From NCBI GenBank assembly GCA_963817895.1, contig CAWFQB010000010.1, positions 128,001 to 192,000 on the forward strand: a DNA stretch of 64,000 bases, written 5' to 3'. The DNA comes from an uncultured Chthonomonadaceae bacterium (GTDB taxonomy: Bacteria > Armatimonadota > Chthonomonadetes > Chthonomonadales > Chthonomonadaceae). Positions 46,987 to 64,000 of this stretch are shown here, one piece after another. A program made the translations under genes and the position numbers. The notes beneath the pieces were generated by a model, which saw only the letters and a program-made list of their open reading frames with translations, searched no databases and was not told where the DNA came from. Positions within the stretch are counted from its first letter, which is position 1, and each line of letters starts with the position of its first letter.

Positions 46987-48159
46987 TCATTCTTTCACTT
47001 TCTCCATAAACTCGTTGATTTTGGCGCGAAAGGCTTTGACATATCCTTCGATGTTGTCGGCGGTGAGCGTATCGAACGCGCTGCCATCTACGACAGTGCC
47101 GCCTGCATAGGCTTTATTGACATTCTCCGTGGCGTATGCGGCCTGAAACGCGGCGCGTACATCCGCGTCCGTAAGGCGGGCGAGTTGTTTGCGGAACCAT
47201 TGCGCGTGGGTAAGGGGAATCTTCTCGTGAACCCCAACCATGCCTGCAATCACATCCTCAAACTTCAGCAAAACTGTGCCGTTTTCCACCTTGCGGATGA
47301 AACTGCTCTCCTTCTGGTAATCGCTGAGAACGCCTTTCGATTTCATCTGCCCGAAACTCGCGCCCCAATCGCTTACGATATACAAATTTGTCGCGCCGTC
47401 CGTGTTGGCGATGTGGACGACCTTGTTGTTTTTGGGCTGCGCGTCCCAGTTGTGTACCATCACTTCCAGTATCAGCAGGCCGGAAAGCTGTTCGGGCGGA
47501 ACGCCGGGATTTTTGCGCTCATCCCAATCGGCGTCGTTGTCTTCGTCTTTGGGGTTGGCTTTGTTTTTAGTTTCGCCTTTAAGGTGCTTGCTCTCTTTAT
47601 CGTGCCGCTTGAACCGCGCTTCGCCGAACGCGCCGTCCGCGCTGATAAACGGCTTGCACTTGCCCAAATCCGTATCCGCGCTCAATCCCTCTATTTTGCC
47701 GACTTTCACATAGTAGCTTTCGTCCACGCCATAGCCGAGCGCCCACGCGAGACGGGGCGCGGCCACATCCGAGTGCGCTTCGGCCCCGAACTTAACCGTC
47801 CATTTCACGCCATTCTTGTCCGTCATGCGGCATTTGGGGCTGGTTCCATCGTTATCCTTTTCAAAATTGGAAAACGGCGGCGCAGGCAGGCGGGACGCGG
47901 GGTTCTGTTCCCGGCTCGCCGCGCCCCAGAACACCTGCGCGGGCGTCAGAGTCCCCCGGTCTTCCCATAAAAGCGCTTTGCCCGCTGTGATGCCTGGCGG
48001 CGCCGCTGCCTGCTTACCGCCTGCTTTTCCCGCCTGCTCGATTTTAAGCGCGGCCCTGTCTGTGTTCGCGCCTGAGTTCGGCGCAGACTGGCAGTGTCCC
48101 GCCGTCATACAGCACCCCATCATGCCAACCGCCAGCCAACTGCGATACCCCTGTTTCAT
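46987..48159 (-). CDS. Secreted hypothetical protein with atypical kinase-like motifs
   Basis: Signal peptide; GTSPK, WTVKFGAE, RLAWALGY, NWDAQPKNN, VSDWGASFG. Confidence 0.55.
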   Translation of the reverse strand: MKQGYRSWLAVGMMGCCMTAGHCQSAPNSGANTDRAALKIEQAGKAGGKQAAAPPGITAGKALLWEDRGTLTPAQVFWGAASREQNPASRLPAPPFSNFEKDNDGTSPKCRMTDKNGVKWTVKFGAEAHSDVAAPRLAWALGYGVDESYYVKVGKIEGLSADTDLGKCKPFISADGAFGEARFKRHDKESKHLKGETKNKANPKDEDNDADWDERKNPGVPPEQLSGLLILEVMVHNWDAQPKNNKVVHIANTDGATNLYIVSDWGASFGQMKSKGVLSDYQKESSFIRKVENGTVLLKFEDVIAGMVGVHEKIPLTHAQWFRKQLARLTDADVRAAFQAAYATENVNKAYAGGTVVDGSAFDTLTADNIEGYVKAFRAKINEFMEKVKE

Positions 48160-53605: not shown

Positions 53606-54136
53606 GTGAGCATGCCTGCGCGTACTGCTGCAACATTGAAAATGTACCTGTCGCGCCCCGACGCGCAACTGCCTGCGCAGATCGAGAGCAGAGAAGCCGC
53701 GCAGGAAATCATGCGGTTGTATCTTGCAAATGGAGGCGCAACGTTTAGTTTACGCTTTGGTAATCAGTCCGGGCAGCGTTTGTACGCGGTGTGCATCTAT
53801 CCTGAGCGCAGTTTGATCCTTGAAGGAGGTGACATCAGCATTGAGGATATTCACGATTATTTATCTGTAAACAAGGAGTGGCTTGCTGATCCGCGCTGCT
53901 GCATCGGGATATGGTACAGCGAGGAGAGTGATATAACCTATCTTGACATTTCCATCTTGTTGCCGCAAAAAAGAGCGGCTCTGGTGCTTGGAAAGCGGTA
54001 CAATCAAGAGGGCATATTCGATCTGTATCGCGCAAAGTATATTCCAACGGGCGGCACAGGCGAACCGACGGGAAGCATGCCTGCAATCAAGCAGAGACTA
54101 CCCATTTTGATGCGTGGGCGGAGGGGAAAGCCGTGA
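53606..54136 (+). CDS. Hypothetical protein
   Basis: 176 aa; IGIWY...YLDIS...ALVLGKRYNQEGIFDL. Confidence 0.6.
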   Translation: MSMPARTAATLKMYLSRPDAQLPAQIESREAAQEIMRLYLANGGATFSLRFGNQSGQRLYAVCIYPERSLILEGGDISIEDIHDYLSVNKEWLADPRCCIGIWYSEESDITYLDISILLPQKRAALVLGKRYNQEGIFDLYRAKYIPTGGTGEPTGSMPAIKQRLPILMRGRRGKP

Positions 54137-54442: not shown

Positions 54443-54997
54443 ATGCAGTTACCCATCCGTATGTTTATGTGTCTTACACTTCTCACTATCATGTGCATAG
54501 GTGGCTCGGCTCAATCTCCACTACAAGGCAATCCGCCTGCTCGGGTAATAGCCGCAGGCAACCCTCTGGTATTGCAAGGAATACATGACCTTGCAGTTGT
54601 TGTATATGCTCCTCCAAAGGAGTTAGCAGCCTTCGGATTAGATCAAACAACATTGCAAACTGATGTGGAATTGAAACTCCGTTTAGCAGGGATAAACGTG
54701 TTATCCTCAAAAGAGAATGAGCGCACACCGGGCTTTCCTCATTTGACTGTAACAATAGAAGCGATGCGAATGGATGCTCCCATCCAAGATGTCTTCATGT
54801 TTAACCTGAAAGTTCGACTTAGAGAAAACCTTCTCTCTGTTCGTATGCCGCGATCCACTATCCTTTCTATTCCCACATGGGAAGACGGGAGTTCTGGAGT
54901 AATAGGAGTGAACAAAATACCGCAATTGCGCGAGAATGTCAAAGATAGGATTGATAAATTTCTAAATGACTACCTAACCGCTAATCCTAAGAAGTAG
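54443..54997 (+). CDS. Secreted hypothetical protein, AT-richer
   Basis: Signal peptide; LQTDVELKLRLAGI; KFLNDYLTANPK. Confidence 0.7.
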   Translation: MQLPIRMFMCLTLLTIMCIGGSAQSPLQGNPPARVIAAGNPLVLQGIHDLAVVVYAPPKELAAFGLDQTTLQTDVELKLRLAGINVLSSKENERTPGFPHLTVTIEAMRMDAPIQDVFMFNLKVRLRENLLSVRMPRSTILSIPTWEDGSSGVIGVNKIPQLRENVKDRIDKFLNDYLTANPKK

Positions 54998-58312: not shown

Positions 58313-60382
58313 TCACAGCGCGTGTTGTTCCAGATAGCGCCGGTACAGGTCGCAGCGGAATATCACTTTGCCGTCCCGCGTCTGCTTGATGATACCCGCC
58401 GACAGCAGGCGATAGTACGAATCCTGATCATTGCGCGGGCTTCCGGCCAGCAACGCCCGCGCGTACTCCACGACGGCGGGCAGGCGCGTCACCGCCACCA
58501 GAAGCCGCTTCAAGTGGTCGGAAAACGGCCCGTCGTCGCGGGCGGCCTGCGCGTTGAGCGTGTCCAAATCCATTTTGCCGGTCGCCAGCGTGTCCAGCGC
58601 GCGGCGGGTCAGGAACGGCTGTCCCCCGATCAGGCCATGCAGAGTTTCCACTTCCTGATAGTTCTTTAAGGGACTGCCGTAGCGTCCGTTCAGGTCTACG
58701 GTTTGCTGAATGTTGAAATCTTCTAAATCCAATCGCCGCCCGACGTTGAACGGCGACTGGTTCAAATCCTGAATAAACAGATGCGCTTCCGTGGCATACG
58801 CGATTACGACGGTCAGCTTGTTCCAGGGGCCGTCCGGTTCCGTCGAGCGCGAATTGTGCCACGAGCGCACCAGCCCGAAAAAGTCACTTGCGAACGGGGC
58901 GAGGAACAGTTTGTCTACTTCATCCATGTACCAGACAAGCGGCTCTTCCGCGCTGTCGAGCAGTTCGCGCAGGAAGTTCTCCATATTCAGGTTCGCGCCA
59001 AAAATCTCGTCCCACTCGCTTGCAAAGTCGTACTTGAACTTCAACTGCCGGGCAAGGGTGGCGGCAAGCAGGCGGTAAAACGTTTCTTCTTCCGCCATCT
59101 GCGACGAGTTGAGTTTCTGAAAATCCGTTATTCCCACCCGCCAGCCCATCTCTTTGGTATGCTTCGTTCCCTGCGCCAGCAGACTGGTTTTGCCCATTTG
59201 CCGCGCCCCTTTGACCAGCAGAATACTCTCCTGATGTTGCAGCGCGAGTAGAAACTCCTGATCGCAGGCGCGCGGCACATAGAAGGGCGAGTCGGGCGGC
59301 ACGGCTCCCCCGACCGGTTCCAGTTTGACCTCTTCCTGCCGCGCTTTCAGCGGTTCGGTAATGGCCGACAGCAGTTCCGCCAGCAATTTTTGCGTGTCCC
59401 CCTCGCCCGTCCACGCGAACTGCGCGTGGGGACTGATGAGAGTGGAAATCACGCCTTCCGGCACATCCTCGCTGCCGATACGCACGGGCAGCAGGATGGG
59501 CTTGGCCGTCCGCGTAAGTTGGTCATTCGCGATTTCGATCTCAAATTCCAGCATCTCGCTTTGCAGGGATTTGGGCGAAACAATGGCGATCACCGCGTCC
59601 GCCGTTCGGATGCGGTCCTCTACGGTTCTGGCCCAGTTCGCGCTGATTTTCGTCTGGCTGTCCGTAAACACTTCGTGTCCGCTTTCGCGCAGGCGCTCCT
59701 CCAGAAACCGCAAAACATGTTCGTCCGGCTGCTGATTGGGTTTGTACAGCAGGGCGATTTTCTGCGTTTTGCCCGCCGGCGTAGAAGTCCAGTTGGAAGC
59801 GACGGGCGCGGCCTTCATGCGCGAAGGCGGCGCATGGTTTCCGGCCTCTCCCGAGTGGAGGCTGTACAGATGCACAACCTGATCGTGCTTGGCCCTGCTT
59901 TCGCCCAGCGGCTGAATGTGGGACGCCCAATCCTCGAACTGCTGTAGCCAGTTGGCGTACTGCACCGACATCAAAATGTGTCCCGCGTCGCCCATGTCCA
60001 TCACGCGCTGCGCGGTATTGATACCCTCGCCGACAACATTCTCCTTGCCCGTAATATCAATCTGCCGCTGCACCAATCCGCTGTGCAGCCCCATGCGAAC
60101 GGGCAGTTTCGTCGTGCCGCCATGCAGTCCGAGCGCAACGTCAAGGGCGCATTGCGCGGGCGCGATCACATCGCTGTAAAACAGCAGCGCCATGCCGTCA
60201 CCTGTCGGTATCGGCTGCACGGCATTGGCGGCAAACGCATCCGCGAACGCTTTAGAGGCCGTGACCGCCGCATTGAGCCGACTCAGCATCTGGCTCTGCA
60301 TCCCCGTCGTTTCGCGGGAATATCCAACGATGTCCAGAAACAATACATGCGCGATCTGCGCCGAGCGGGGTTTATCAGTCAT
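58313..60382 (-). CDS. Class III nucleotide cyclase - TIR-like - AAA_35 (STAND) ATPase
   Basis: LFLDIVGYS, TGDG, RMGLHSG, GINTAQRVMD; EVFTD...I...DAVIAIVS...SEMLEFEI; GARQMGKTS, YMDEVD, SPFNVG, GGQPFL. Confidence 0.88.
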   Translation of the reverse strand: MTDKPRSAQIAHVLFLDIVGYSRETTGMQSQMLSRLNAAVTASKAFADAFAANAVQPIPTGDGMALLFYSDVIAPAQCALDVALGLHGGTTKLPVRMGLHSGLVQRQIDITGKENVVGEGINTAQRVMDMGDAGHILMSVQYANWLQQFEDWASHIQPLGESRAKHDQVVHLYSLHSGEAGNHAPPSRMKAAPVASNWTSTPAGKTQKIALLYKPNQQPDEHVLRFLEERLRESGHEVFTDSQTKISANWARTVEDRIRTADAVIAIVSPKSLQSEMLEFEIEIANDQLTRTAKPILLPVRIGSEDVPEGVISTLISPHAQFAWTGEGDTQKLLAELLSAITEPLKARQEEVKLEPVGGAVPPDSPFYVPRACDQEFLLALQHQESILLVKGARQMGKTSLLAQGTKHTKEMGWRVGITDFQKLNSSQMAEEETFYRLLAATLARQLKFKYDFASEWDEIFGANLNMENFLRELLDSAEEPLVWYMDEVDKLFLAPFASDFFGLVRSWHNSRSTEPDGPWNKLTVVIAYATEAHLFIQDLNQSPFNVGRRLDLEDFNIQQTVDLNGRYGSPLKNYQEVETLHGLIGGQPFLTRRALDTLATGKMDLDTLNAQAARDDGPFSDHLKRLLVAVTRLPAVVEYARALLAGSPRNDQDSYYRLLSAGIIKQTRDGKVIFRCDLYRRYLEQHAL

Positions 60383-60440
60383 AAAACGCGCATATCCTTT
60401 TCTTTCCAATTGTCTTCCAGGTAACTCCCGGTCACGGGAG

Positions 60441-63400
60441 TTACTTGGAAGACACCTTCCCAAGCCGCGTGTCATCCGCAAACCATACTTTCGCCGTGCC
60501 ATCATTACTGCCCGTGACTATGCGCTTACCATCAGATGAAAACGCGACGGATCTAATACCATCCGTATGCCCTTTGAGTGTCAAAAGTTCTTGTCCGGTT
60601 TGCGCGTCCCACACCTTTGCGGTCTTATCGCTACTGCCCGTAACGATGCGCTTGCCATCAGGAGAAAAAACAACAGAACTGACACTGTCGGTATGTCCTT
60701 TGAACGTCAAGATTTTGTACCCGGTCTGAGCATCCCACATTGAGGCCGTGTTATCCTGGCTGTCTGTGACAATCTTTGTGCCGTCTGGAGAGTAGGAAAC
60801 AGACCGGATATAGTCTATGTCCCCTTTGAGCATCAACACTTCATGTCCCGTCTGCGCATCCCATACCTTTACAGTGCCATCGGCACTGCTGGTTACAACG
60901 CGCTTGCTATCCGGTGAGAACGCAACGGCGAAAACAGAGTCCGTATGTCCTTTAAACGTCAGCGCTTCCTGCCCGGTCTGCGCATCCCATATTTTTGCGG
61001 TATTGTCCTGACCGCCCGTAACAACGCGTTTTCCATCAGGAGAAAAGGCGACAGTATCCACGCTAATGGTATGTCCTCTGAGGGTTAGCGCTTCATGCCC
61101 TGTTTGAACGTCCCACACCTTTGCGGTCTTGTCACCACTGCCCGTCACGATGTGTTTACCATCAGGAGAAAAGGCGACAGCATTGATACTGCCCGTATGC
61201 CCTTTAAGCGAGAGTAGGAATTCACCTGTTTGGGCATCCCATACTTTTGCTGTCTTATCGCTACTGCCTGTGACGATTTTTGTGCTGTCGGGAGAAAAGG
61301 CGACAGAACTGCCAGCGTTCGTATGTCCTTTGAGTTCCAGCACATCATGCCTTATTGTAGCGTCCCAAATTCCTGCTGTGTTATTGTTACTGTTGGTAAC
61401 GATGTTTTTACCATCAGGAGAAAAGGCGACAGAACTGACGCCATCCGTATATCCTTTGAATGTCAGCGCTTCATGCCCTGTTTGGGTATCCCACACCTTT
61501 GCGGTCTTATCGCTACTACCTGTGACGACGCGCTTGCCATCGGGAGAAAAGGCGACAGAACTGACGCCGCCCGTATGCCCTTTGAGCGAGAGTAGGGATT
61601 TACCTGTTTGGGCATTCCATATCCTTGCAGTGTTGTCATCACTCCCCGTGACGATCTTTGTACCGTCTGGAGAAAAACAAACAGACGAGACACGGGAAGC
61701 ATGTCCATTGAGCGTCAGCATTTTATGCCCCGTTTGCGCGTCCCATACCTTCGCCGCGCCATCCCAACTGCCCGTAACAATTCTTGTGCCGTCAGGAGAA
61801 AAGGAGAAGGATGAAATTCCATTTGCAGCGCCTTTGACAGCTAGGAGTTCATGCCCTGTCTGCGCGTCCCACACCTTCATAGCGTCCAGGCAACCCGTAA
61901 CGATGTTCTTGCCATCAGGAGAAAAACCAACAGATTCGACGCCGGTCTTACTGGCATCTATTTCGACATGCATCTTACCATCATCAACAGAAAAAGAAAT
62001 AGAACTGATGCCTTCTGTACGCCCTTTGACAGATAGGAGTTCGTGTCCGGTCTGAGCGTCCCATACCTTTGCGGTCTTATCGTGACTGCCTGTAACAATC
62101 TTTGTGCCGTCAGGGGAAAAAGCAACAGCGCTGATATAATCAGTGTGGCCTTTGAGCGTCAGCAATGCTTCGCCTGTCTGAACATTCCACACCTTTGCCG
62201 TCTTGTCCATACTGCCCGTAACAATGCGCTTGCCATCAGGAGAAAAGGCGACAGAGTTGACGCCGCCCGTATGCCCGCTAAATATTTTCAAACTTAGATG
62301 ATTCAGACGGTTCCAATATCCCCACTCGAACCCGCGCCCTTTGTACCCATCCGTCGCCTTCAGCAACTCCAGCACATGCGCAACATTGTTGCTCTCCCAT
62401 TCCCGTTGTATCAGGTTCATGTTGGCGACATACAGGTTGTAGTCGGCATTGTCACGGGCGCGATTCGCTTCCAGCGTTTTGTCGTTGGCAAGTTGGGCGT
62501 TGCGGCGGGCGGCGCGGGTTTGGACAAAGCCATAGACCGCCAGCCCGGAGAGTATCACGGCAATGGCGGTTCCCATCACGGCTGCGCGTACCATGCCCCG
62601 CCAATAGGCGGTCTTCTGCCGTCGCAGTTCGGCGTCCGCGGTATGGTCTGCCACCCACTTTTTGTCGAACACCTGCGCGTAAATGCGGTTGCGAACCCGC
62701 AATAACCCGTTTTCCACCCGCGCCACGCCGGACAGTTTCAGCGCCGCGCAGAGCGGATTGGTGTCGTCATCCGCAACCCGCTTGCCATCACGTACCTGCC
62801 CGTACAAATCCAGCACAGCCGCCGGTTCCGCATCGCTTTTAAGCAGCCGGTCGCGCACAAACGTCAGGTTGTTGTCGCTCTCCTTCGCCGTATGCGTCAG
62901 AAACAGGTCGGCGCAGAGTTTGTCAACAGAGGGTGTTCGGTGTTCGGTATTCGGTATTCGGTATTGGGCTTCTACGATGGCGCTGCACAAACGTTGTGTA
63001 AGATACGGGTGTCCATTCGTCCAATACAGCACTCTTTGCAGCAACTTTTCCCCGTGTCCCCCGTGTTCCCCGTGGTTCAATCCCTTTGCCAGCGGCGCGG
63101 CTTCCTGTGGGGTGAAGTCAGTCACTTCCACGCGCCTGCCTATGTTGAACGGGCTGATGCGCGTATCTTGGATCAAATCCGAGGGCGCGGCGGTTCCGAG
63201 CAGGCAGAAAGACAGCCGTTTCAGCGCGGGATTGACGGCGCGTTCGACATACAACTGCCGAATCGCGCTGAAAAACTCATCCGCAGAAAACGGCAGACTG
63301 CGCGTGGCGTCAATCTCGTCCACAAAAACCACAATCGGCGCATCGGAAGCCGGCAGCGCGACCTCTTCCAATGCGCCGAACAAACGCGGCAACGGCCCTA

Positions 63401-63773
63401 CTCCCTGCGCGGCCTGCGTTTTCCAGTACGCCAGAAACTCACCCCGCAGCCCCAACTCCCGCCCCATGACCGACAGCAGGCCCGCGTACCACTGTTCCGC
63501 GCTCAGGTTGCTGCCGCCAAGTTTCGTCAAATCCACAAAAACGGTTCGGACGCCCGCCTGCCGCAATCGGCCCATTGTGCGAACGCACAGGCTGGACTTG
63601 CCCATTTGCCGCGAATTCAGGACGTAGCAGTATTCGCCCGCCATCAGCGCGTTCCGCAAATCCTCATCGGCCTGCCGGGTGACGTAGGAAGAGGCTTCGG
63701 GCGGCAATGTGCCGCCCGTAATGTAGAACGGGACTGCGGAGGGCGCGGGAACCGACGCCGAAGTAACAGACAT
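60441..63773 (-). CDS. AAA_35 (STAND) ATPase - hydrophobic helix - 14 WD40 repeats
   Basis: NSRQMGKSS, VFVDEID, SPFNIG, GHPYLTQ; AAVMGTAIAVILSGLAVYGFV; repeats of GH...V.SVAFSPDG..IVTGS.D.TAKVWD. Confidence 0.93.
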   Translation of the reverse strand: MSVTSASVPAPSAVPFYITGGTLPPEASSYVTRQADEDLRNALMAGEYCYVLNSRQMGKSSLCVRTMGRLRQAGVRTVFVDLTKLGGSNLSAEQWYAGLLSVMGRELGLRGEFLAYWKTQAAQGVGPLPRLFGALEEVALPASDAPIVVFVDEIDATRSLPFSADEFFSAIRQLYVERAVNPALKRLSFCLLGTAAPSDLIQDTRISPFNIGRRVEVTDFTPQEAAPLAKGLNHGEHGGHGEKLLQRVLYWTNGHPYLTQRLCSAIVEAQYRIPNTEHRTPSVDKLCADLFLTHTAKESDNNLTFVRDRLLKSDAEPAAVLDLYGQVRDGKRVADDDTNPLCAALKLSGVARVENGLLRVRNRIYAQVFDKKWVADHTADAELRRQKTAYWRGMVRAAVMGTAIAVILSGLAVYGFVQTRAARRNAQLANDKTLEANRARDNADYNLYVANMNLIQREWESNNVAHVLELLKATDGYKGRGFEWGYWNRLNHLSLKIFSGHTGGVNSVAFSPDGKRIVTGSMDKTAKVWNVQTGEALLTLKGHTDYISAVAFSPDGTKIVTGSHDKTAKVWDAQTGHELLSVKGRTEGISSISFSVDDGKMHVEIDASKTGVESVGFSPDGKNIVTGCLDAMKVWDAQTGHELLAVKGAANGISSFSFSPDGTRIVTGSWDGAAKVWDAQTGHKMLTLNGHASRVSSVCFSPDGTKIVTGSDDNTARIWNAQTGKSLLSLKGHTGGVSSVAFSPDGKRVVTGSSDKTAKVWDTQTGHEALTFKGYTDGVSSVAFSPDGKNIVTNSNNNTAGIWDATIRHDVLELKGHTNAGSSVAFSPDSTKIVTGSSDKTAKVWDAQTGEFLLSLKGHTGSINAVAFSPDGKHIVTGSGDKTAKVWDVQTGHEALTLRGHTISVDTVAFSPDGKRVVTGGQDNTAKIWDAQTGQEALTFKGHTDSVFAVAFSPDSKRVVTSSADGTVKVWDAQTGHEVLMLKGDIDYIRSVSYSPDGTKIVTDSQDNTASMWDAQTGYKILTFKGHTDSVSSVVFSPDGKRIVTGSSDKTAKVWDAQTGQELLTLKGHTDGIRSVAFSSDGKRIVTGSNDGTAKVWFADDTRLGKVSSK

Positions 63774-64000
63774 AGGACACCGCCTTACAGACAAATCAGA
63801 TAAACATGGTACTGCCGTACCTTTGCGAGTATATTGATCTGGTTGAGATCATAATTGAGGAGAAAAATGGAATATGGGTTCTTTCTCAATCTCATGGCTC
63901 AGCCGAAAGGTGAATGACATCGGCAAACCAGATTTTAGCGGTTTTATCTGCGCTGGCAGTGACAAGGCGCTTGCCATCCGGGGAGAACACTGCCGAATAG

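Follow-up and report, generated by a model that had tools for sequence, protein, structure and literature searches.

A stretch of 64,000 nucleotides from an uncultured Chthonomonadaceae bacterium (the window) carries two neighbouring genes, A and B, that encode related ATPases. The question raised by this locus is whether the two products form a divided sensor and executor, where the sensing part resides and what the output serves. The original prediction had described two co-oriented genes 58 bp apart, one with WD40 repeats and one with cyclase and TIR domains, as an NLR-like pair for defence or signalling. The features of the locus are the following.

60441..63773, minus strand: gene A, 1110 aa; A-type AAA_35 STAND ATPase, transmembrane helix, helical linker and 14 WD40 repeats
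62619..63740, minus strand: ATPase module of A, aa 12–385; Walker A K59, Walker B D152-E153
62523..62585, minus strand: predicted transmembrane helix of A, aa 397–417, preceded by an Arg-rich segment
60474..62291, minus strand: 14 WD40 repeats of A, a variable module of two-propeller size
63892..64000, minus strand: 3' end of A', a second A-type gene, 118 nt upstream of gene A
58313..60382, minus strand: gene B, 689 aa; class III cyclase, TIR domain and B-type AAA_35 STAND ATPase at the C-terminus
59843..60358, minus strand: class III nucleotidyl cyclase of B, aa 9–180; D17, D62, N122 and R126 kept
59357..59764, minus strand: TIR domain of B, aa 207–342; E281, D241 and W250 invariant, first strand atypical
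58316..59329, minus strand: ATPase module of B, aa 352–689; NBD, helical domain and winged helix

Genes A and B lie on the same strand, separated by 58 nt. In profile searches both products matched AAA_35 (PF14516), A over aa 21–271 (E 1.1e-25, 90.6 bits, cut-off 27) and B over aa 359–685 (E 3.5e-76, 256.6 bits, cut-off 27). Both contain Walker A (RQMGKS/T), Walker B (DEID, DEVD), SPFN.G and G.P.L motifs, which confirmed this part of the original prediction; Walker A and Walker B were invariant among A homologues and among B homologues. The two-gene description was correct for A and B, but had overlooked A' just upstream. This gene extends over G000:C10:191892-195140, mostly outside the window, and encodes 1082 aa with the layout AAA_35-TM-14 WD40. 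The gene order is A'-A-B, with two sensors and one B, and the flanks are an ABC transporter and recG. Counts of promoters and terminators were no higher than in shuffled sequence.

Gene A and its predicted membrane helix

Profile searches found 14 WD40 stretches in A (E 1.7e-154). An N-terminal extension of more than 80 aa was present in none of 91 A homologues, and A carries no output domain. The original prediction was right on the repeats and on the absence of an N-terminal effector, but had missed the transmembrane helix at aa 397–417. By hydropathy this segment reaches KD 2.05 over 21 aa, and it sits between the ATPase and the WD40 repeats. It is kept in 88 of 91 single-module A homologues, in 40 of 43 complete A genes of metagenome loci (3 of 43 are without it) and in 114 of 128 evaluable A representatives, L107 being one that lacks it.

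The helix has a KD of at least 1.6 in 81 of 83 A homologues, yet is only 29% identical among them, which is the pattern of a transmembrane segment. Lys and Arg residues were more numerous before the helix than after it in 53 of 83 homologues, equal in 17 and fewer in 13; at 5.2 vs 4.1 Lys and Arg the bias is modest, and the segment following the helix of A is also basic. In relatives of A, the position after the helix is occupied by PEGA, CarboxypepD_reg, DUF2092 ('predicted periplasmic') or CHASE2 domains, and also by WD40 or TPR repeats. Judged by hydropathy and charge bias, A is most likely a single-pass membrane protein with its propeller outside the cytoplasm.

Domains of gene B

Ahead of its ATPase, B matched Guanylate_cyc (aa 12–174, E 3.4e-5, above cut-off) and TIR_2 (aa 219–309, E 2e-14) in profile searches. 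The absence of sensor repeats from B was confirmed, and the ATPase was C-terminal in 81 of 81 complete B genes of metagenome loci. Conservation was counted in 104 full-length B homologues. In the ATPase, K398 and D487-E488 were each found in 104 of 104. The cyclase has a full catalytic set, made of two metal-binding Asp (D17, 100 of 104, the remaining four being gaps; D62, 104 of 104) and an Asn/Arg transition-state pair (N122, 104 of 104; R126, 102 of 104). These four residues had been predicted and proved near-invariant, but the base-selecting positions had been overlooked. Adenylyl cyclases have K and D at these positions, and guanylyl cyclases E/C. In B, pairwise alignment to 3et6 and 5oyh set them at I58 and N115, a non-canonical combination that is neither the adenylyl nor the guanylyl pair; among the 104 homologues, position 58 is L in 64, I in 24 and F in 9, and position 115 is N in 95. 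K/D and E/K base-selecting pairs are named in the cyclase literature (PMC11224242; 10.64898/2026.08.12.744502). The unusual base pocket of B may confer a new cNMP specificity.

The candidate catalytic Glu of the TIR domain (E281, helix C) was kept in 104 of 104 homologues, as the original prediction would have it, but the atypical first strand had gone unnoticed. The usual TIR motif there is FISY, and B reads ALLY; Y213 is kept in 98 of 100 homologues, and the preceding Phe and Ser positions are V/A and L.

An AF2 model of B (pLDDT 91.9, pTM 0.60) consists of three loosely linked domains. In this model the cyclase matched 3et6 (Z 19.6, rmsd 2.3, 169 aligned), the TIR domain matched the SARM1 TIR 9hq0 (Z 15.0, rmsd 3.0, 127 aligned), and the ATPase matched 2qen (Z 21.5, rmsd 3.9, 307 aligned) and 2fna (Z 20.9, rmsd 3.8, 306 aligned). 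The ATPase also resembles the wheat resistosome 9h2l (Z 18.1) and CED-4 (Z 16.5) over about 280–310 residues, and the top Foldseek match of B was the TIR-NLR RPP1 (7dfv, E 7e-11). With a modelled NBD, a helical domain with a GxP motif and a winged helix, the B ATPase can be assigned to the STAND NTPase class. Weak ATPase_2 matches and an Arg-containing P-loop were also observed; a PDB sequence search with the ATPase returned nothing beyond weak P-loop matches, and an NCBIfam search gave no family above cut-off.

Pairing, fusion and exchange of modules

The ATPases of A and B are 28% identical; they align over 327 columns (probability 100) and split cleanly in a quick tree of 69 rows (SH-aLRT 100). 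By sequence comparison, A and B are two old AAA_35 subfamilies. Their genes were repeatedly found together. An A accompanied B at 51 of 79 metagenome B loci, and at 17 of 20 of those that were well flanked, so that the two types are usually neighbours; the 51 pairs were arranged as B-A (41), A-B (7) or convergently (3). The source genome has about 13 A and 10 B copies, and 9 of 10 B genes adjoin an A. Since an A was missing from 3 of 20 well-flanked B loci, and since 3 of 13 A genes in the source genome were solo, the partners need not be cognate neighbours. An A/B pair was present at all four plasmid loci examined, of 39 plasmid matches, on cyanobacterial and Chloroflexota plasmids. Adjacency spans at least four phyla, and includes intact B-A neighbours in Nostoc PCC 7120 and a pair with consecutive locus tags in Capsulimonas corticalis. 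In named genomes, 12 close cyclase-TIR-B loci were compared; many had no complete A, most of the contigs being short.

The two ATPases also occur in single chains. B-A fusions were P0243 and the P0244-48 family, whose members are 88–94% identical to one another and therefore represent one fusion event; A-B fusions were P0250 and P0252, from named cyanobacteria, as well as P0249 and P0251. At least two A modules were present in 43 proteins, and in 38 of them two modules were less than 60 aa apart, many by 3–5 aa. P0242 (kinase-B-A-TM-WD40) and P0284 were not counted as fusions: they lack the B winged helix or the beginning of B, a likely sign of a frameshift or of a join made in assembly. The AF2 model of the two-ATPase part of the B-A fusion P0244 (pLDDT 90.8; pTM 0.62, near the 0.60 of B alone) had a disordered linker and was neutral on contact; it was built from an alignment in which B cores stood beside B-A fusions and A-A tandems.

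Both subunits vary outside the ATPase. The heads of B include TIR, cyclase, Ser/Thr kinase, Trans_reg_C, BTAD, trypsin and CHAT domains; GT4 and HEPN were not found among the heads scanned. TIR was present in 58 of 81 complete B genes of metagenome loci. In the source genome the commonest head was a transcription-activator-like module, as our own profile detected a BTAD-like head on 6 of about 10 B genes; Pfam BTAD was seen in one of two such heads scanned. The tails of A are WD40, TPR or extracytoplasmic domains. The ATPase of P0123 has 88% identity to that of A, and its WD40 part 46%; this WD40 part is 76% identical to that of another paralogue in the source genome. GC3 is 0.50 in the WD40 part of A vs 0.71 in its ATPase part. 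Change was enriched at top-face WD40 positions (132/162 vs 497/987), but the propellers under comparison are unlikely to be orthologues, and the enrichment was therefore not read as selection. The split into sensor and executor proposed originally was supported by the adjacency (17/20; 9/10), the two subfamilies and the natural fusions.

At an E threshold of 1e-30, the A and B types of AAA_35 together have 5,912 representatives. Within the class the distribution is patchy, covering 26 of 61 genomes; one congener has the cassette at another place, and a second was not found to have it at the flanks seen here. No phage relatives and no viral-contig relatives were found. PADLOC 2.0 recognized no system, its best matches for the pair being partial TIR or ATPase; no Avs family appeared among its matches at E up to 0.01, in a 2023 library that predates newer Avs. 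In a neighbour scan of the best 80 of 475 matches, performed without a background control, PADLOC matches were obtained for 9 of 147 neighbouring ORFs, never two per locus. AbiEii and a restriction enzyme were found near two A/B loci, and the defence-island signal around A/B loci was weak. TIR Glu invariance, patchiness, cassette mobility and the 39 plasmids are also compatible with a conflict role.

Proposed mechanism, competing readings and known systems

We propose, as on balance probable, that the locus encodes a two-subunit membrane-spanning STAND signalling relay, with A and A' as receptors and B as the cytoplasmic transducer whose output enzymes are switched on. A and A' would cross the inner membrane once, with the ATPase on the cytoplasmic side and the WD40 propellers on the other, and B would be a soluble ATPase of the sister subfamily bearing the output enzymes. 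An extracytoplasmic ligand would cluster or reorient A, whose ATPase would exchange nucleotide and then join the B ATPase head-to-tail, together with other A's, in a mixed oligomer. Class III cyclases require dimers; clustering would pair the B cyclase domains as dimers and stack the B TIR domains. The output would be a cyclic nucleotide, which need not be cAMP, perhaps accompanied by a product derived from NAD, and the role would be environmental signalling or surveillance. This role seems the most likely, given that elsewhere kinases and transcription activators are run from the same chassis. Of the two roles first suggested, defence is possible, but signalling fits better, BTAD-like heads being the commonest in the source genome; general signalling or surveillance likewise fits better than phage-triggered suicide, itself possible.

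If this relay operates, a membrane receptor split from a sensor-less transducer would carry STAND switching across the membrane, and would account for the large unstudied AAA_35 family. In the literature consulted, STAND/NLR proteins are treated mainly as cytoplasmic sensors, and the tested bacterial ones as single-chain anti-phage proteins. A tentative extension, which we regard as possible, is that AAA_35 A/B pairs form a general transmembrane transduction class beside two-component and ECF/anti-sigma systems, in which receptors would share transducers combinatorially through a mixed ring, nucleated by the receptor, with interchangeable outputs; here two WD40 receptors would drive one enzyme giving both a non-canonical cyclic nucleotide and a TIR-derived signal, and the locus would amount to a Toll-like receptor on an NLR core.

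A rather unlikely alternative keeps the transmembrane pair and dedicates it to immunity: at the envelope the propellers would sense a protein from a phage, predator or competitor, the mixed oligomer would set TIR to depleting NAD+, which would kill or arrest the cell, and the cyclase would amplify or relay the alarm. The invariance of E281 (104/104), the frequency of TIR heads (58/81), the rapid turnover of the sensor vs the stable ATPase, the patchy, mobile and plasmid-borne distribution, the AbiEii and restriction enzyme near two loci, and trypsin, CHAT and FGE-sulfatase variants that recall predicted conflict systems (PMC8195603) all favour it. A preprint also puts STAND-fused cyclases in general in 'immune clade 1' (10.64898/2026.08.12.744502). 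Yet PADLOC gave only partial TIR or ATPase matches and no system, defence neighbours are few, winged-helix, BTAD-like and kinase heads are common, the TIR first strand has neither the usual Phe nor Ser, and the locus is flanked by an ABC transporter and recG. The prevalence of transcription-activator-like heads suits signalling better than suicide.

It is improbable that the pair is cytoplasmic, with the A helix buried or a mere tether and WD40 sensing a ligand in the cytoplasm, for instance a phage protein, in the manner of NAIP-NLRC4 and Apaf-1-like STANDs. The STAND fold, the sensor/executor split, the minority of A's without a helix, the basic segment after it and the WD40 sensors of cytoplasmic defence STANDs (PMC13581612) are in keeping with such a pair; against it, the helix is hydrophobic in 81/83 homologues and only 29% identical, and it lies between the ATPase and repeats whose place is taken by typically extracytoplasmic domains. 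The NLR-like division of labour is supported, but not its cytoplasmic setting, the sensor being a predicted single-pass protein with its propeller most likely outside. Equally doubtful is that A and B are independent homo-oligomeric paralogues, each acting alone or with other partners, whose proximity would go back to an old duplication and to joint transfer. The existence of A and B genes on their own, the variable gene order and the many close cyclase-TIR-B loci without a complete A (12 loci, mostly short contigs) would agree with independence; it is difficult to reconcile with an A that has no output domain (0/91), a B that has no sensor (81/81), adjacency in at least four phyla and fusion in several lineages. 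The original prediction is, overall, partly supported.

The membrane relay was then compared with known systems. Sensor/helper NLR pairs include NAIP-NLRC4 and plant RRS1/RPS4. As in these, sensor and output are divided between two paralogous STANDs, here A and B respectively, and B resembles RPP1 in having TIR directly N-terminal to the NTPase. In contrast with them, A crosses the membrane, B has no repeat domain, the ATPases come from another STAND clade, and outputs include cyclase, kinases and transcription activators. Leipe, Koonin and Aravind are said to have described in 2004 MNS-clade STAND ATPases, which group an Npun2340/2341 family with archaeal MJ/PH/SSO-type ATPases. In the model, the B ATPase is structurally closest to archaeal PabY2304 (2qen) and SSO1545 (2fna), solved relatives of that family. 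The Npun2340/2341 family, compared by description, has a name that suggests two consecutive genes like the A/B pair; it is named in PMC8195603, and in the supplement rows examined the label 'MNS-Npun2340' stands on single TPR-GreA/B-PIN proteins and on no pair.

Avs/AVAST and bacterial NACHT proteins share with A/B a STAND core, a variable repeat sensor and TIR-type effectors, but both are described as single tripartite cytoplasmic proteins sensing phage proteins (PMC13581612), whereas in A/B the effector and the sensor are encoded by different genes, each with its own ATPase, and a TM helix is present. Neither A nor B has the effector-STAND-sensor layout in one polypeptide, although rare natural fusions do join the two. 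The nSTAND2 two-gene system is similarly an operon with a STAND in each gene and a predicted hetero-multimer, and one of its partners varies in effector. In nSTAND2, GT4 or HEPN is attached to an ATPase that has eroded (PMC8195603), whereas A and B both keep Walker A/B and belong to AAA_35, and A has a TM helix and WD40. Literature searches on the pair returned no description of a TM-receptor/transducer STAND pair, though the 589-clade tables of PMC13581612 may list the clade, and no experiment on an A/B family member was found. The A/B pair matches no catalogued system among those compared (PADLOC and literature). Synechocystis Hat/Slr0143 reportedly (Hisbergues, 2001) has WD repeats joined to an N-terminal domain through a hydrophobic linker some 20 residues long, is membrane-located and has an inorganic-carbon-uptake phenotype; its likeness to A in layout, with a non-defence role, is by description alone and serves as a lead.

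Finally, Pycsar/Pucsar resemble B in having a class III cyclase with altered base-selecting residues beside TIR (PMC11224242; 10.64898/2026.08.12.744502). They differ in that B holds cyclase and TIR in one STAND-fused chain, and no cNMP-binding domain was found in A, B or the scanned flanking genes; the arrangement of a separate cyclase with a CNBD-TIR or CNBD-TM effector did not occur at the locus. By fold, the modelled B cyclase ranked canonical adenylyl/guanylyl cyclases above PycC (Z 19.6 vs 13.8–16.7).

Layout and family assignment of the locus

The original prediction described two co-oriented genes 58 nt apart, each with an AAA_35 ATPase. ORF and Pfam analyses bear out this account for both ORFs and their domains:

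63773–60441, minus strand: gene A, ORF of 1110 aa, Pfam domains AAA_35 and 14 WD40
60382–58313, minus strand: gene B, ORF of 689 aa, Pfam domains Guanylate_cyc, TIR_2 and AAA_35

It had overlooked a hydrophobic helix in gene A and a second A-type gene upstream, A' (1082 aa, laid out as gene A and 57% identical to it), whose end occupies the final 109 nt of the window. The order is A'-A-B, with an ABC transporter on one side and the recG region on the other. Close gene B relatives carry Armatimonadota labels, mostly Chthonomonadales. Three window ORFs had no Pfam match at E 1e-5 (46987–48159, minus; 53606–54136, plus; 54443–54997, plus), the first and last with signal-peptide-like N-terminal stretches.

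Both proteins belong to the STAND class and the AAA_35 family. Leipe 2004 is said to place an Npun2340/2341 family in the MNS clade. A and B are probably members of this family, which is named in the accessible text of PMC8195603. The possibility that the pair was an already catalogued system was considered, and A and B lacked defining features of Avs, Pycsar and the nSTAND2 pair alike. Their mode of action would be that of a sensor/helper NLR pair, with the difference that the predicted A sensor crosses the membrane. No description of the pair was found in the accessible parts of PMC7159879, PMC10907252, 10.64898/2025.12.03.692087 and 10.1101/2020.01.06.895854, nor any account of it in a literature search whose coverage mostly excludes subscription papers; the clade tables of PMC13581612 may list the clade with a defence score.

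Gene B: conserved catalytic residues and variable heads

The AF2 model of gene B resolves three domains (pLDDT 91.9, pTM 0.60). The best fold match of the ATPase was the archaeal STAND-type ATPase PabY2304 (Z 21.5, rmsd 3.9, 307 aligned), followed by archaeal STAND-type SSO1545 (Z 20.9, rmsd 3.8, 306 aligned); plant resistosomes and CED-4 ranked lower. For the cyclase, the matches were class III cyclases (Z 19.6 to 3et6); for the TIR domain, SARM1/TIR-1 (Z 15.0–15.5). The canonical TIR first-strand motif includes Phe and Ser; gene B retains the Glu and Tyr, and its first strand lacks the customary Phe and Ser.

Conservation was counted in 104 sequences of 650–720 aa, gene B included. TIR residue E281 and ATPase residues K398 and D487-E488 are kept in 104/104, as are D62 and N122 of the cyclase, with D17 in 100/104 and R126 in 102/104. 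Because these catalytic residues are near-invariant, the cyclase is probably active; its product is uncertain, since the base-selecting positions are L/I/F and N across homologues instead of K/D. According to the accessible text of PMC11224242 and 10.64898/2026.08.12.744502, Pycsar/Pucsar cyclases shift specificity via such residues.

Nearly all of the best 120 of 3,764 gene B matches share the cyclase-TIR-AAA_35 architecture, five with an extra N-terminal kinase. The ATPase forms the C-terminal end of B in 81/81 complete genes from metagenome loci, so that the absence of sensor repeats predicted for gene B holds for these homologues. Heads comprise TIR (58/81), cyclase, kinase, Trans_reg_C, BTAD, trypsin and CHAT. 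By our own head profile, a BTAD-like head is present on 6 of the approximately 10 B genes of the window's genome (G000). Some 30 further G000 ORFs match this profile without an AAA_35 module, a predicted large expansion of SARP/AfsR-like regulators; the accessible part of a sigma-factor survey has AAA_35 among accessory domains.

Gene A: predicted membrane helix and sensor exchange

The hydrophobic helix of gene A (aa 397–417, 21 residues) lies between ATPase and repeats. A region search gave 120 homologues, sorted by script into 91 single-module and 29 multi-module proteins (three of the latter being one module interrupted by an insertion). Each of the 91 single-module proteins begins with the ATPase, in agreement with the predicted lack of an N-terminal effector, and 88/91 have a helix with KD of at least 1.6 directly after it. 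Identity across homologues is 29% in the helix and 64% in the ATPase, and the surrounding charge bias is modestly in favour of an N-in topology. The helix is followed by WD40, TPR, PEGA, CarboxypepD_reg, DUF2092 or CHASE2 domains, several of which are typically extracytoplasmic. Against an extracytoplasmic sensor, the helix is missing from a minority of A proteins (3/43 at metagenome loci, and locus L107).

The sensor part is exchangeable: the homologue P0123 shares its ATPase with gene A (88% identity; 46% in the WD40 part) and its WD40 with a different G000 paralogue (76%). The WD40 half of gene A (60441–62300) has a GC3 of 0.50, against 0.71–0.75 for its ATPase half and the genes around it, which would fit a module brought in by exchange. 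Swapped effectors and sensors had been proposed as a point to survey, and both B heads and A tails vary.

At least two A modules occur in 43 proteins, and in 38 of these two modules are <60 residues apart, which suggests head-to-tail packing within an oligomer. P0125, P0140, P0166 and other homologues have two or three covalently linked A-type modules ahead of the TM helix; one of this group ends in CHASE2.

Pairing, spread and possible role

Genes A and B are intact and are one member of a widespread predicted paired membrane STAND system. The cores of A and B share 28% identity and are divided by a single branch (SH-aLRT 100; quick tree, 69 rows). About 13 A genes and 10 B genes occur in G000, and several of them contain frameshifts; in a hand-merged list, 9/10 B and 10/13 A have the other type within 5 kb. 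The best 80 of 475 metagenome matches gave 79 B loci, with A at 51 and at 17 of the 20 having at least 7 kb upstream and at least 3 kb downstream, so the proposed adjacency is frequent (B-A 41, A-B 7, convergent 3). All four plasmid loci opened, from 39 matches, carry B-A (two Nostoc, one Chlorohelix, one Abditibacteriota). Both modules share one chain in 11/26 long B relatives; with one likely assembly join dropped and one close family merged, natural fusions are B-A in two lineages and A-B in four proteins, two from named cyanobacteria.

The cyclase-TIR query matched 26/61 genomes of the class, with both domains covered in only about half of the 26. The congener G002 has orthologous A-B on other contigs (83–86% nucleotide identity), and its 53-kb stretch that includes the ABC transporter and recG yielded neither an A nor a B gene. 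In the congener G001, the slot adjoining recG (C2, L128:3970–5706) is occupied by a 578-aa ORF in which nothing lies between a B-type cyclase and WD40 repeats. This ORF lacks the TIR, the ATPase and the TM helix and resembles a B-A pair turned into a chimera by internal deletion.

The observations cover the domain make-up, the conservation of motifs, the pairing, the fusions and the swapping of modules. STAND oligomerisation is established, and class III cyclases have dimeric active sites. From these properties we infer that a ligand bound outside the cytoplasm would drive the A ATPase into an oligomer, which would recruit B, possibly by direct binding, and so cluster its cyclase and TIR domains. 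General signalling or surveillance is, on balance, the role we favour; Synechocystis Hat/Slr0143 is a possible lead for a non-defence role of the A-type layout. Dedicated abortive defence seems rather unlikely: the invariant TIR Glu, the frequency of TIR heads, rapid sensor turnover, patchy, plasmid-borne spread and the 'immune clade 1' of STAND-fused cyclases in the accessible text of preprint 10.64898/2026.08.12.744502 argue for it, but BTAD-like heads are common in G000, a search for phage and viral relatives found none, and only 9/147 neighbouring ORFs from 21 loci (165 picked) match PADLOC, a count without background control. These matches are mostly partial, never two in one locus.

L019 (G000:C2:628253–633101) is a B-A-A triad: one in-frame TGA interrupts its TIR-bearing B, one A is a bare module, and the other A is short, has two TM helices and lacks a sensor. 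A and B lie about 4.5 kb apart at G000:C5:509283–517125 and C9:82743–91509; between them at C9 are prepilin-type genes with an N-terminal methylation motif and a protein that looks exported, and the C5 pair has similar genes on its flanks. Frameshifts or stops, which are probably assembly indels, interrupt AAA_35 paralogues at G000:C10:71217–76716, C5:144690–150497, C1:699987–704142, C9:82743–86224 and C14:435356–436472. In G002, genes for a Clp-like ATPase, a Lon protease, a CHASE2 protein and AbiEii come after the near-duplicate B loci L132 and L133 (C58, C57).
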